Source: a virus
Virus record (IMG/VR): IMGVR_UViG_3300042691_034899
Span: 16,849 to 80,848 of that record
Reading direction: 5' to 3' (one strand)
DNA length: 64,000 nt
The position numbers and the translations under genes were made by a program. Shown in pieces: positions 1-34,844 of the stretch (position 1 is its first letter; every line of letters starts with the position of its first letter). The notes below the pieces were generated by a model. That model did no database searches and was not told where the DNA came from. It saw only the letters and a program-made list of their open reading frames with translations.

Positions 1-725
1 TACTGAGTTCTAAATGAAGGCAAAGCAGCATTTAATGGTCCCTTACAATCGAACTTACCTATCTCATCCATAATGTAGCCTACAGGAGATAAACCAGCAC
101 TTTTTTCAGATTCCTTCTTACTACCCCTATTTACGTTTCTTATAGCGATTTGAGAATGCACATATCTGTGACCAGTCTTTTCTTTAAGTCCAAATTCTAC
201 AAATGAATCCCAATCAGTTACAAGCCTAGGAAGTTGAAGTGCAGGATGTACGTTATTGAAATGTCTTTCTAGAAGTGCGGATATTGCTTGTAAGTCACCG
301 TCTGATCCTCCGACTATCGATGTAACACCATTTGTTCGAATTGTATTTAGCCAGGAAGTTAAAGAGGCTAACGATGTTGATTTAGCAAAACCACGAGTTC
401 CGAAAAGACAAAGTCCTTTTCCTTCTTTTTCCGCTTGCTGATAACTTTCAACTACATACATGAAGTTGTCATCAAGTGGTGGACACATTATCTTCTCTTC
501 TTTATTCTTTAGTGGAATAGGGGTCTTAAAATAATTTAAATGGTAATACAACCAAGGGTGTACGAAAAAACCTCCTATGTATACACCATTGGTTATTTTT
601 GATTTTTCTTCCTCAAAAAATTTTATAACATCTGAGGATTGTTCAAAATAATGCTTTCTTGGGTTATACACAGGAGGCTTATTCATATTTATGAACATCT
701 CCTTACTACTGAGAATACTTGACAT
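1..725 (-). CDS. terL: Terminase large subunit, N-terminal ATPase part (runs off the window edge)
   Basis: Not in the ORF track. Hand translation from ATG 725: MSSILSSKEMFINMNKPP... with Walker A-like GTRGFAKST and Walker B GYIMDEIG; frame open to position 1. Confidence 0.85.
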   Translation of the reverse strand, partial: MSSILSSKEMFINMNKPPVYNPRKHYFEQSSDVIKFFEEEKSKITNGVYIGGFFVHPWLYYHLNYFKTPIPLKNKEEKIMCPPLDDNFMYVVESYQQAEKEGKGLCLFGTRGFAKSTSLASLTSWLNTIRTNGVTSIVGGSDGDLQAISALLERHFNNVHPALQLPRLVTDWDSFVEFGLKEKTGHRYVHSQIAIRNVNRGSKKESEKSAGLSPVGYIMDEIGKFDCKGPLNAALPSFRTQ

Positions 726-3073: not shown

Positions 3074-3304
3074 ATGGAAGAAATAATTCAAACTGAAGAA
3101 GAATATTTTTACAAAATCTTCAATACGATATCGGAAAGTATAATTACTGATGAGTACTTTGATAAAAATGATAAGCTACTAAGTAGTATATCAAGTTCCC
3201 TATATGACATTAATATCATAACTGAAGGTAAAATGCCGCCAGAGCTTGGTAGAAGAGTTATTGAAGAGGTATTCTCAAATGTATTCAAACACGGTATACG
3301 TTAA
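3074..3304 (+). CDS. Hypothetical protein
   Basis: 76-aa ORF with AT-rich leader. Confidence 0.6.
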   Translation: MEEIIQTEEEYFYKIFNTISESIITDEYFDKNDKLLSSISSSLYDINIITEGKMPPELGRRVIEEVFSNVFKHGIR

Positions 3305-3320
3305 ATTTTTCCAAAAAGTA

Positions 3321-3352
3321 TTTGCAGATATTTACTTTTCTGTTTATATTTG
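3321..3352 (+). promoter_or_regulatory. Bacteroidota housekeeping-sigma promoter driving the non-coding region
   Basis: TTTG (3321-3324), N20, TATATTTG (3345-3352). Confidence 0.75.
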
Positions 3353-3356
3353 CGGT

Positions 3357-3680
3357 TATATTCGTAAAAAAGTATAAAAAACATAGTGTGTTTTAGATTC
3401 AGTTTTGACACGTACAACTCAAAACTACGACTAATAGGGAACTATTCGGCAAAATAAAAAGCTCAGCTCTGCAACGCCTGCAACTGAGTCCAGCAGACCT
3501 TCGGGGGGATCGCCAGAATAGATACAAAAAAGCCATAGCAATTTGAAATTTTTAAAAATTGCTGAATAAATAAGAAATTGGTACTGGTAGTAGAGTGTCC
3601 CTTATTGGTTTAGTAACATAGTTTCTATGTGAAAATCTGGCGGGAGGGATTCTGCTGGTAATAAGGCGAAGCTATGCATT
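3357..3680 (+). ncRNA. Putative large structured ncRNA, family not recognised
   Basis: No ORF. Nested helices CCAGCAGA/TCTGCTGG, CGCCAGA/TCTGGCG, CATAGT/GCTATG plus several hairpins; has its own promoter. Confidence 0.6.
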
Positions 3681-3747
3681 ATAGGTAAATTTTTCGTAAA
3701 ATTTTAATTACTCGAAAAGTTTCATTAAATTTGTAAAAAACCATAAA

Positions 3748-4725
3748 ATGAGTATATCTAAAGAATCTTTAAGTAAGCTTCAAAAACTATTTGGAAAAGA
3801 AGCAGTTATGACTTTAAACGAGTCGATTAATCTTGACATTGAACTCCTATCATCTGGATCTCTATTCTTGAACCACGCTTTAGGCGGAGGATTCCCTATG
3901 GGAAGAATCATTGAGATAGCTGGCCCAGAGTCTTCAGGAAAAACAACTCTAGCTATTCACGCTATTTCAGAAGCGCAAAAAGTTGGAAAGAACTGTGCGA
4001 TGATTGATGCTGAGCATGCATTCGATAAAGTCTATGCAGAAAACTTAGGCGTGAATACAGACGAGCTTCTAATCTCTCAACCTGATACAGGAGAACAAGC
4101 TCTTGACATAGTGGAAGCAATGATTGATACTGGAGAGGTTCAGCTAATTGTAATTGACTCTACCTCATCCCTTGTACCTAGAGCAGAGCTAGAAGGTGAA
4201 ATGGGTGACTCAGCTGTAGGACTACAAGCTAGGCTATTATCAAAAGCTTTAAGAAAGTTGACAGGAAAAGCAAAGAAAAATAATTGTCTTCTTATTTTCA
4301 TATCTCAGTTGAGAGAAAAAATTGGAGTTATGTACGGATCGCCAGAAGTTATCGGAGTTGGTAATGCGCTTAAATTCTATGCCTCTCAGCGGATTATTGT
4401 AAGAAAGTCTACTCAAGTTAGTGGAAAAGATGGCAACGGACCAGAGGGCAATCTAACTAAAGCTAAAGTTATTAAGAATAAAATCGCTCCTCCATTTAGA
4501 GAAGCTGAGTACACAATCAAATACGGAAAAGGTATTGACAAAGATGGCGAGCTTATTGACTTAGGAGTTGAAATGAATATCATAGAAAAATCTGGATCTT
4601 GGTATTCTTACCAAGGATCTAAATTAGGTCAAGGTAAAGAGAATTCACTTGCTTTACTTTTAGACAATCCAGAGCTTATGGAAGAGATTAGAGGACTTGT
4701 TGAAAAGGGACTTGCCAATCAATAA
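3748..4725 (+). CDS. recA: RecA recombinase
   Basis: GPESSGKTT Walker [32 protein letters not shown]. Confidence 0.97.
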
Positions 4726-4736
4726 ATCAAATCTAT

Positions 4737-5165
4737 ATGTGGATATTTGAAAATAAACCTGTAAATTCTATTGATGATATAGACCCAAAAGCAATTGGGT
4801 TTATATACATCATAGTAGATGAAGATGGTAGGGAGTATGTTGGGCAGAAGTCTTTATATTCAAAAAGAAAGCGAAAGTTTGGTAAGAGAGAAGCTGCAGC
4901 TATCACTGATAAGAGAAAGAAGACTTATGAGTATATTGTAAAAGAATCTGATTGGCTTACTTATACTGGATCAAACAAAGAACTTAATGAAAAAATAAAA
5001 GAGGGTATTAAGTTTACAAAGCACATCCTAAAACTTTGCTACAATAAGAAGCAATTATCTTACTATGAAACAAAATATCTTATGATTAGAGAATCAATTG
5101 AGCCTGGGAATATGTCATACAATGGAAATATCTTAGGTAAGTTTTATCCTAAAGATTTACTATGA
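4737..5165 (+). CDS. GIY-YIG family endonuclease (T4 endonuclease II-like)
   Basis: GFIYII...YVGQK...ESDWLTYTGS...E...YNGNI pattern. Confidence 0.7.
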   Translation: MWIFENKPVNSIDDIDPKAIGFIYIIVDEDGREYVGQKSLYSKRKRKFGKREAAAITDKRKKTYEYIVKESDWLTYTGSNKELNEKIKEGIKFTKHILKLCYNKKQLSYYETKYLMIRESIEPGNMSYNGNILGKFYPKDLL

Positions 5166-7087: not shown

Positions 7088-8659
7088 ATGAGAAAATATC
7101 ATAAATATGACAACGATCTAATTGAGGATCTTTGTAAAAAACAACCTGAAGACAACTTCAATTTAACAGATGTAGCTAAAAGGTATTGTAAAAAGAAGGA
7201 TATAGACTTCTCTGTCTATATAGCTAGAAGCATTCAAAAAATTGTTGCAAATAATAACTTTAATGTTTCAAACGTAAAACCTTTAAAATCTAAAGCTTAT
7301 ACAGCAGCTGTAAAAAGAAAGTTTAAAAGTAAGAAATCAAACTATATTGTTACTTGGGCTCAAGCTCATACTCCAATAGATGAAAATCTATGGAACAATA
7401 TCAAAGTATACGCTGAATATCACAATGCTGATATTATAGTTATGCCAGGAACTTACCTAAATAATAATTCAGTTTTCACAAAACGAGTTGAGGTATGGGA
7501 TTCTGAATTAGTTGATTACTTATACGCTACAGAAGCATCTGTACACAATCATCTAACAATGATACCAGATGCTGATATTATACCAACTGCAGAAAGACCA
7601 CTACTTGGATTATTTAGTGTAACTGGAATTGAAAGCTGTATCATTGGACATCCAAGACAACACATGGACATTGTACCTACAATGAAAAATTCAAGAAGGA
7701 AGTTCATGTTTACAACTGGGTCAATTACTGTTCCTAATTACAGAAAGTCAAGAGTAGGTAAGAAGGCTAAAGTCCATCACAAGATGGGTTTTCTTTTTGT
7801 TGAAAATCTAAATGAGGATAATTTTACAGCTAGACACGTACATGCAGATGACGATGGTTCATTTACAGATCTAGTATTTTCAGTTTCAAATGGTAAAGTA
7901 TCATTTGAGAAGAGCTGGGAAGCAATGGTATTTGGTGATACTCATTTATCAAAAGAGGATCCAAAAATGCTAGAAGAATCAAAAAGGTTGTGTAAATTAG
8001 CAAACTGTAAAAGAACAATATGGCATGACCTTGCAGATGGGTACTCTATAAATCCACATCAAGAGAAAGACTATGTTGAACAAGTTGTAAAAGCAAAGAA
8101 AGGTTTAAACAGTCTTGAAGAAGAACTAAATAGAAGTGTGGAGTTCTTAAATGGATGGTTAGATTATAATCCAGTAATAATTCCAAGTAATCACAACGAT
8201 TGGATTGACAAATGGGTTAGATTCAATAGAGGATCAAAAGATATTAACAATGCTATGATATTCAATAGATTTCAAAATATTCTATTTGAAGAGAAGGCTC
8301 CAAAAGGACTCTATGCATATGTTCTAGAAGAGACTTTTGGAGATAGTATTACTTGTTTATCAAGAGATGATTCTTATGAAGTTTGTGGAATAGAGCTTAA
8401 TAATCATGGAGATCTTGGATCTAATGGAGCAAAAGGAACTCCAACAACATTTGCAAAACTTAACACTCCAGTTGTATCAGGAGATAAGCATTACCCATAT
8501 ACACTAGATAATGCACATGGAGTTGGTCTATCATCTGTACTAGATCACAAGTATAATAGAGGTATGTCTAGTTGGGCTCAGAGTAATGGTATAATTTTAC
8601 CAAACGGAAGATTCCAACACTTACTTTATTTCGATGGTAAATTCACTAATTTAATTTAA
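7088..8659 (+). CDS. T5 A1-like metallophosphoesterase-fold protein (putative DNase / DNA-transfer protein)
   Basis: YIVTWAQ, SCIIGHP, TTGSIT..NY...GKKA..HH, GDTH, WHD, SNHN, HGDLGSNG, SSW motifs, as recalled for T5 A1 homologs. Confidence 0.7.
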   Translation: MRKYHKYDNDLIEDLCKKQPEDNFNLTDVAKRYCKKKDIDFSVYIARSIQKIVANNNFNVSNVKPLKSKAYTAAVKRKFKSKKSNYIVTWAQAHTPIDENLWNNIKVYAEYHNADIIVMPGTYLNNNSVFTKRVEVWDSELVDYLYATEASVHNHLTMIPDADIIPTAERPLLGLFSVTGIESCIIGHPRQHMDIVPTMKNSRRKFMFTTGSITVPNYRKSRVGKKAKVHHKMGFLFVENLNEDNFTARHVHADDDGSFTDLVFSVSNGKVSFEKSWEAMVFGDTHLSKEDPKMLEESKRLCKLANCKRTIWHDLADGYSINPHQEKDYVEQVVKAKKGLNSLEEELNRSVEFLNGWLDYNPVIIPSNHNDWIDKWVRFNRGSKDINNAMIFNRFQNILFEEKAPKGLYAYVLEETFGDSITCLSRDDSYEVCGIELNNHGDLGSNGAKGTPTTFAKLNTPVVSGDKHYPYTLDNAHGVGLSSVLDHKYNRGMSSWAQSNGIILPNGRFQHLLYFDGKFTNLI

Positions 8660-34524: not shown

Positions 34525-34598
34525 GGTCCCGTAGCTCAGCTGGATAGAGCAACTGCCTTCTAAGCAGTAGGTCACACGTTCGAATCGTGTCGGGATCA
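34525..34598 (+). tRNA. tRNA-Arg(UCU)
   Basis: GGTCCCG/CGGGATC acceptor stem, ACTGC-CTTCTAA-GCAGT anticodon arm, GTTCGAATC T-loop; CCA not encoded. Confidence 0.95.
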
Positions 34599-34690
34599 CA
34601 GCAGTTACTTGATGTCCTGTAGTACAGTAACAACCATTGGCATGTAGGGCATTGCACGAATGGTGGCGCAAGGTAAGATGTACTTGCAAC

Positions 34691-34764: not shown

Positions 34765-34838
34765 GGATCTGTAACTCAGTTGGTTAGAGTGCAACACTCA
34801 TAATGTTGAAGTCCTTGGTTCGAGCCCAAGCCGATCCA
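34765..34838 (+). tRNA. tRNA with CAU anticodon (elongator Met or Ile2)
   Basis: GGATCTG/CCGATCC acceptor stem (one mismatch), CAACA-CTCATAA-TGTTG anticodon arm, GTTCGAGC T-loop. Confidence 0.9.
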
Positions 34839-34844
34839 CAAAAT

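Follow-up and report, generated by a model that had tools for sequence, protein, structure and literature searches.

We analyzed a 64-kb stretch of phage DNA (the window), which is part of the 80,848-base IMG/VR virus record IMGVR_UViG_3300042691_034899 (completeness estimate 53%), and focused on a structured RNA encoded at 3382-3676 on its plus strand. The RNA is 295 nt long, counted from the 5' arm of its terminal helix P1 to the 3' arm, and comparative sequence analysis makes it almost certain that it is a real, conserved, structured RNA belonging to an uncatalogued family. It lies in a tract between a 76-codon open reading frame (ORF) at 3074-3304 and recA (3748-4725, plus strand), which is intact (325 aa) and matches Pfam RecA with an E-value of 4.3e-109. 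The minus-strand genes to the left end with a large terminase gene (3-725, minus strand; phrog_6681, 2.1e-21), and the RNA is located ~430 nt from the start of this divergent terminase operon.

The locus had been described before in a note made from the letters of the window without database searches (the original prediction), which placed an ORF-free, G+C-richer tract with a nested, multi-helix fold between a terminase operon and recA, named promoter boxes ahead of the tract and ahead of recA, and proposed an undescribed phage non-coding RNA. The terminase match bears out the first neighbour, and the tract indeed contains no ORF of 60 aa or more, its sole ORFs being 36-45 aa long, with a G+C content of 0.335-0.395 versus 0.21-0.31 in the flanks. 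Both boxes are present as well: a promoter-like -7 box TATATTTG at 3345-3352 (plus strand), with TTTG at 3321-3324, 20 nt upstream, and a second promoter-like box TAAATTTG at 3726-3733 (plus strand), outside the RNA and ahead of recA. We call these TAnnTTTG boxes promoter-like on the basis of what we take to be the promoter consensus of Bacteroidota. Overall, the earlier observation is thus partly confirmed, in that the tract, its composition, the boxes and the letters of the helices stood, whereas about half of the proposed fold proved wrong.

The TANNTTTG 8-mer pattern is mildly enriched across the window (112 sites versus 85 expected; 1 of 100 shuffles as high) and is weak as lone evidence; the boxes gain weight because they are conserved in relatives of the RNA. 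The TATATTTG box is conserved in loci L434 and L002 although the spacer around it has diverged, the box ahead of recA is kept in L434, L002, and L359, and a box is found 7-9 nt ahead of the RNA in L359 and L124. Folding of the tract gave -79.3 kcal/mol for the plus strand (z -2.49; 4 of 100 shuffles equally good) and a weaker signal for the minus strand (z -1.80; 6 of 100 shuffles equally good).

Relatives were retrieved by the neighbouring gene and by motifs of the RNA itself. Retrieval by recA gave one close phage, L002 (RecA identity 88%), the 51 other loci being at or below 53%. Over 3382-3676, the RNA of L002 is 85% identical, in contrast to diverged flanking spacers, and compensating changes distinguish several of its stems from those of the window. 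A scan with an invariant 15-mer and a nearby degenerate motif returned 12 stretches, of which 8, from unrelated contigs, are members and 4 (L083, L122, L161, and L281) are not. In a second scan with two other motifs, we obtained 34 stretches, comprising 21 further members and 13 stretches that represent two replicated coding sequences. The 15-mer is altered in the 21 further members, which shows that the first motif captures only part of the family. The first motif scans (15-mer and 14-mer) had yielded mostly chance matches, with only L067, L153, and the L002 contig being real among the matches listed, and a two-motif pattern gave three stretches, of which L278 is a chance match in coding sequence.

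A profile built for nhmmer set the members cleanly apart from chance: 52 of 485 loci were found at E<1e-3, 51 of these at E<1e-20, with the window RNA at E=2.8e-45 and 41 distinct sequences among the members. A covariance model of the RNA core (R1; 216 positions, 33 pairs) matches 42 of 43 candidate sources with E-values from 3.7e-42 to 7.5e-14, brings in the diverged member L447 (75 bits) and rejects L083. Taken together, motif scans, profile and covariance model yielded 52 loci with 42 distinct sequences. The core of the window RNA (3430-3662) scores 120.4 bits against R1 (E=1.1e-23) and is present as a single copy in the window. Across the family, the RNA is 270-300 nt long. One metagenome contig (L391, ~48-110, minus strand) ends in a long TTGA tandem repeat in place of the 3' part of the RNA, which is probably an assembly artefact.

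The members come from IMG/VR and metagenome contigs, and the carriers are uncultured phages. A motif scan of 185,579 species genomes gave 53 motif matches, none of which is a member; BLAST searches of 401 sampled Bacteroidota genomes, with a typical member as the query, returned a single weak 40-nt match (E=5e-4), and R1 found no member in 151 sampled Bacteroidota genomes. Among 50,697 records of cultured phages, blastn detected no match to the window RNA and none at 1e-3 to the RNA of L475; at E-values up to 10, 22 records contained only pieces of 24-42 nt in genes of Bacillus and Vibrio phages. These negatives for hosts and cultured phages rest on samples and motif-based scans and are to be read as "not found in those searched" rather than "absent".

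The fold was derived with RNAalifold from 12 members and then checked helix by helix. RNAalifold with only two sequences had given a misleading fold, and a column scan for helices on a MAFFT alignment was too noisy and was dropped. In the MAFFT alignment of 27 members, which was not fitted to the structure, 89.3% of 1,278 cells pair, compared to 36.0-45.3% after shifting of the 3' partners by 1-3 columns, and both sides change in 34 of 49 pairs. For four measures, none of 500 shuffles came up to the observed value; for the fifth, the number of pair types, 18 did. The alignment fitted to R1 (41 distinct rows) is biased towards the modelled helices, and with this bias 93.8% of its cells pair versus 35.0-38.7% when shifted, with changes on both sides in 35 of 41 pairs; the pseudoknot described below is not part of the model. 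Altogether, the compensatory changes preserve 9-11 separate helices. G-U pairs are frequent on the R1 alignment, for example in helix F (38 of 41 rows) and helix B (32 of 41 rows). Since these would be A-C mismatches on the opposite strand, the RNA is encoded on the plus strand, to which all arms named in the following belong.

The architecture is that of one long-range helix enclosing two subdomains. Helix A (3436-3440/3598-3602) is 99.5% paired on the R1 alignment, with changes on both sides in all five pairs, and encloses helix B with hairpins C and D as well as helices E and F with hairpin G and junction J. Helix B (3442-3447/3516-3521), likewise long-range, is 95.6% paired and changed on both sides in 8 of 8 pairs; the plain MAFFT alignment agrees for both helices. 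Hairpin C consists of an outer (3461-3466/3484-3489) and an inner stem (3470-3473/3479-3482) separated by a conserved internal loop (83-87% paired, 7 of 8 double changes). Hairpin D (3498-3505) reads CC-UUCG-GG in the window and carries a GAAA loop in most relatives (100% paired, 2 of 2 double changes); in L153, we noted a possible 11-nt GAAA receptor. The second subdomain (E-F-G, 3524-3582) is built from helix E (3524-3525/3590-3591) and helix F (3532-3535/3579-3582), both 100% paired, and hairpin G (3537-3544/3556-3563), which is 98.7% paired with changes on both sides in 4 of 4 pairs.

The most conserved letters are found in unpaired junctions rather than in stems. Junction J (3563-3577), an A-rich, single-stranded and nearly invariant 15-mer, is identical in 22 distinct members, which are those retrieved via J itself; it is one or two letters off in members retrieved via the other motif and partly missing in L454, L460, and L462. 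A second conserved junction, GAGTGT, leads into the 3' arm of helix A, the two together occupying 3593-3602. Outside helix A, a hairpin P3 (3401-3408/3419-3426) is present at this place in all clades with differing stem letters and, in most relatives, an A-rich 3' loop; its pairing amounts to 76.4% in the MAFFT alignment, where this part is poorly aligned. Hairpin H (3616-3630) is variable in length and sequence, and relatives have a hairpin at the same place. The outermost helices are tentative: P2 (3389-3395/3662-3668) is 85.2% paired in 27 sequences, and P1 (3382-3387/3671-3676) has 6-11 bp in the window, L002, and L067.

All nine helices listed in the original prediction can be read in the sequence, and three of them are not kept in relatives. 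GCTCAG/CTGAGT and AGCAATTT/AAATTGCT recur with covariation, a covarying hairpin occupies the place of AGTTTTGA/TCAAAACT, and ACATAG/CTATGT, likewise covarying, is retained as a variable hairpin. The pairing of CCAGCAGA with TCTGCTGG is kept and covaries; it had been drawn as nested, whereas it crosses other helices. The outermost pairing, CATAGT/GCTATG, corresponds to P1 and is found in some clades, but does not exceed chance across the family. Three helices are not supported: the arms of the hairpin AATAG-GGAA-CTATT are the 5' strands of the long-range helices A and B, the 5' arm of CCTTC/GAGGG belongs instead to the local CC-UUCG-GG tetraloop hairpin, and CGCCAGA/TCTGGCG does not hold even in L434, the nearest relative.

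The 5' strand CCAGCAGA (3490-3497) forms an 8-bp long-range helix with the 3' strand TCTGCTGG (3651-3658), which connects the 3' tail with the first subdomain at its junction. As this helix crosses helices A and B, it is a pseudoknot. The full 8 bp form in most members, nine or more different letter sets keep the complementarity, and the mean is 7.13 versus 4.33 in shuffled sequences; on the R1 alignment it is 87.6% paired and 5 of 8 pairs change on both sides. We also found a second complement to this 5' strand, namely to its 5' half, in segment X (CTGG, 3584-3587), which is part of the internal loop flanked by F and E. X changes along with the pseudoknot strand: seven letter sets of 4-5 nt each were identified by script (mean 3.67 versus 2.75 shuffled), the complement is present in every clade where the script could extract the segment, and an eighth set was read by eye in the L062 clade. 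In strict column register, 82.1% of the cells of X pair and 1 of 4 pairs changes on both sides, with diverged clades being out of register. Within one molecule, X and the 3' pseudoknot strand are mutually exclusive partners of the 5' strand, and in the window neither pairing overlaps a terminator or start codon. The pairing with X could be a folding intermediate, a switch or an intermolecular contact; most likely, X would hold the pseudoknot strand during transcription until the 3' partner is made, or form a two-state switch with it. A local hairpin "I", formed by the 3' pseudoknot strand and a nearby upstream copy, did not exceed shuffles (6.26 versus 5.94) and was rejected.

To place the RNA among known classes, we searched the Rfam 15 models (4227) with cmscan. 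At gathering score, the 64-kb window contains two tRNAs only, and twelve member loci contain only one tRNA and a permuted tmRNA, both outside the RNA. At E-values up to 10, window positions 3250-3800 gave three chance-level matches of 9-16 bits (best E 4.7), and the best E-values elsewhere were 2.1 (L475) and 0.74 (L452), with all matches being of 9-19 bits and to unrelated families or flanks; none reached the E of ~0.01 below which a match would be suggestive. The models for RNase P (bacterial, archaeal, nuclear), for ROOL and GOLLD and for group I introns gave no match in these lists at E up to 10; neither did the prohead RNA (pRNA), of which Rfam 15 presumably holds a model. ARAGORN detected no tmRNA in the window and none in 37 member loci. 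A tmRNA-like tag frame and a conserved start codon in the J/F region were considered and rejected, as neither is kept between clades when inspected by eye. The accessible parts of the literature held nothing that matches the family; candidate-motif lists of surveys could still contain it. Judged by these comparisons, the RNA is a new family in the sense that it has no detectable relative. Two of the checks proposed with the original prediction came out in its favour: cmscan matched no known family, and covariation among homologs is strong in the 27-member MAFFT alignment and the 41-row R1 alignment. Together with the lack of an ARAGORN tmRNA, this upholds an undescribed phage non-coding RNA that is not a tmRNA, RNase P RNA or intron.

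We next compared the neighbourhoods of the RNA across clades and found no protein neighbour shared across them. The window, L434, L002, and L359 have the order small ORF - RNA in common, with recA next in the window, L002, and L359; in L434, recA after the RNA was judged by reading frame. Thirteen loci have the RNA 10-26 nt ahead of terS (GP3_package, 4.7e-7) and terL (Terminase_3, 8.6e-15). It comes after a tRNA-Cys gene in L086 and after a permuted tmRNA in L444. The latter is a two-piece tmRNA of a metagenome contig, placed immediately upstream of the RNA at 4460-4690 on the minus strand (RF04321, 61.8 bits versus a gathering score of 47), for which ARAGORN made no call. In 14 of 27 members, a TAnnTTTG box separates the RNA from the gene that follows. 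A MazG-like small protein, identified by motif reading as a shared neighbour in four clades, was not taken as a partner of the RNA because such proteins are common in phages.

In L475 (~2816-2905), the region upstream of the RNA contains, in this order, a TAnnTTTG box, a small hairpin and a G+C-rich, terminator-like hairpin with a run of 6-7 U. The same arrangement of a box and two hairpins is found upstream of the RNA in L417, L430, L452, L482, L461, L484, L463, and L444, with the first hairpin preceding the box in L452 and L482. From the end of the element to the RNA there are 5-25 nt, and no Rfam match to it was found; its two hairpins have complementary loops, which co-vary in seven or more lineages. 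The element may act as an attenuator or represent an independent small RNA. In the terS clade (L475 ~3190-3213; also L470, L461, L484, and L457), 13 letters directly before the terS start repeat part of F-G-J without the 5' arm of hairpin G, and their conservation contrasts with an identity of only ~38% between the TerS proteins. This copy could be a common protein-binding site or an alternative pairing.

Other genes of the window were recorded alongside. In the window and L002, recA is separated from the gene behind it by a free-standing GIY-YIG homing-endonuclease gene (4737-5165 of the window, plus strand; Pfam SegE_GIY-YIG, 1.1e-22), which is not found at that spot in L359 and is a typical mobile insertion. 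The two phage tRNA genes of the window are Arg(TCT) at 34525-34599 and Met(CAT) at 34765-34839, both on the plus strand. A T5 A1-like "DNA transfer protein" is encoded at 7088-8659 (plus strand; phrog_1745, 2.1e-129), and its closest cultured relatives are from Polaribacter and Flavobacterium phages. With respect to the proteins next to the RNA, the closest cultured relatives are Flavobacterium psychrophilum phages (TerL 56.8%), followed by Polaribacter and Flavobacterium phages at 34-36%. The closest cultured terminase relative is that of Flavobacterium phage FpV9, in which the gap before terS is only 164 nt. Because of these relatives of the neighbouring proteins and the promoter boxes, the hosts are probably Flavobacteriia or other Bacteroidota.

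On balance, we lean towards an autonomous, stable RNA that acts in trans, because its genomic context is variable, it has its own promoter in several clades, a box follows it in half of the members, and it is found in tRNA-type company. In the window, a host-type promoter belonging to the RNA itself (3345-3352) would drive its synthesis; in other clades, it would be cut from a longer transcript. The stable product would then act in trans via its folded core, as a protein-binding scaffold or as a catalytic or ligand-binding RNA, and would not control the adjoining gene.

Several findings weigh against such autonomy. A terminal helix such as P1 is a hallmark of stable RNAs, and family-wide P1 does not exceed shuffles (5.85 versus 5.42). 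We found no intrinsic terminator downstream of the RNA in the window. No promoter box lies between the RNA and the next ORF in 13 of 27 members, and in the terS and L452 clades the start codon follows ~10-30 nt past the RNA, so that the RNA there physically amounts to a 5' leader. The main clades have a promoter and a terminator-like hairpin ahead of the RNA, which looks attenuator-like, and two competing complements for one strand are also what is expected of a regulatory switch. In addition, all members were reached via two sequence motifs, so that the range of the family is unevenly sampled.

Many of these points are those that suggest a cis-acting leader, a sensor or anti-termination element that would set the expression of the operon behind it (terS-terL or recA) by switching of the pseudoknot strand, a reading that we take seriously and nevertheless consider doubtful. 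It would account for the short distance to the start codon in the terS and L452 clades, the missing box in between in 13 of 27 members, the promoter and the terminator-like hairpin with its U-run 5-25 nt upstream in the main clades, the co-variation of both complements, and the partial F-G-J copy directly before the terS start. However, a consistent class of downstream genes, as for a riboswitch or leader, was not found among the clades: recA, terS-terL and unknown genes follow the RNA, and these are unrelated to each other. Furthermore, 14 of 27 members have an own promoter box after the RNA, the structured part comes after the upstream terminator-like hairpin, unlike in riboswitches, and both in size and in its two-subdomain core the RNA goes beyond known leaders.

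Rather unlikely in our view is a new phage RNA class with a ribozyme-grade core that would either be catalytic or form a self-assembling or protein-recruiting particle tied to late gene expression or DNA packaging in phages of Bacteroidota. The exchange of X against the 3' pseudoknot strand would in that case be part of its working.

For a packaging-associated RNA like the phi29 pRNA, in which X and the pseudoknot strands would make intermolecular contacts, the argument is one of position, and we regard such a role as improbable. The RNA lies by terminase genes in two unrelated arrangements, directly before terS-terL in 13 loci and beside the divergent terminase operon in the window clade, and it has one strand with two complements that are unable to pair at once within one molecule. 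Yet there is no Rfam match, and hence none to pRNA provided that its model is included as presumed, the neighbours in other clades have no packaging function, and the phages have ordinary small and large terminases, which are not known to require an RNA.

That a known class, such as a group I intron remnant, RNase P RNA, tmRNA, or ROOL/GOLLD, has diverged so far as to be missed by Rfam is very improbable. The long-range pseudoknot, the GNRA tetraloops and the A-rich junctions do resemble those of large ribozymes, and a permuted tmRNA lies alongside in L444. However, cmscan at E up to 10 and ARAGORN gave the negative results described above, no exon context is present, with recA being intact, and by eye no frame is kept where a tmRNA tag would be. 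A DNA element, either a replication origin or a pac site with repeated protein-binding sites, would be in keeping with a module border near terminase genes and a short sequence in direct and inverted copies, but is hardly credible given compensatory changes that keep 9-11 separate helices, many G-U pairs that fit one strand only, and hairpin tetraloops that swap UUCG and GAAA.

Few large RNAs combine conservation and a pseudoknot with nearly invariant unpaired junctions, and the explained cases are ribozymes, riboswitches or the cores of RNA-protein machines. Dozens of members of the present family occur in very different phages, from ~40-kb genomes with Flavobacterium-phage-like terminases up to one phage with an estimated size of 150 kb. 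Since the RNA was found neither in the sampled host genomes nor in the searched records of cultured phages, it points to an unstudied piece of Bacteroidota phage biology. The alignment and the covariance model make the RNA family directly testable.

In comparison with known systems, the present RNA shares with group I introns a long-range pseudoknot crossing a helical domain, tetraloop hairpins and A-rich junctions, but it interrupts no gene and, by our own reading, its order of helices differs. A further uncatalogued multi-stem RNA of similar size (357 nt) has recently been described from chromosomes of the same bacterial phylum, where it is reported to adjoin phoH2 (10.64898/2026.10.21.760802). 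By its genomic context, this PhoH2-associated RNA is probably distinct from the present one: R1 matched none of the 151 sampled Bacteroidota genomes, and no match to PhoH was found in the record of the window.

The phi29 pRNA is likewise a structured RNA encoded by a phage; the present RNA adjoins packaging genes in two clades and has one strand with more complements than one molecule can use. It differs in size and fold, shows no sequence or model match to pRNA, and occurs in phages with a small terminase. Processive anti-termination or leader RNAs, such as HK022 put and Bacillus EAR, are resembled by the RNA in those clades in which a promoter with a terminator-like hairpin lies on one side of it and a late operon on the other. 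In contrast to these, the present RNA is three to four times larger, comes after the terminator-like hairpin and has its own box downstream in 14 of 27 members.

ROOL and GOLLD RNAs have sizes of roughly 500-800 nt. The present RNA, in contrast, comprises ~295 nt, is found only in phages with Bacteroidota-type promoter boxes and has no cmscan match to them. ROOL and GOLLD have been described, with cryo-EM, as large "ornate" RNAs of phages and prophages (10.1101/2024.12.08.627333). Like them, the present RNA is phage-borne, probably stand-alone and intricately folded, with a pseudoknot and no known function. In addition, the present RNA, too, is sometimes located beside tRNA-type genes, as in L086 and L444.

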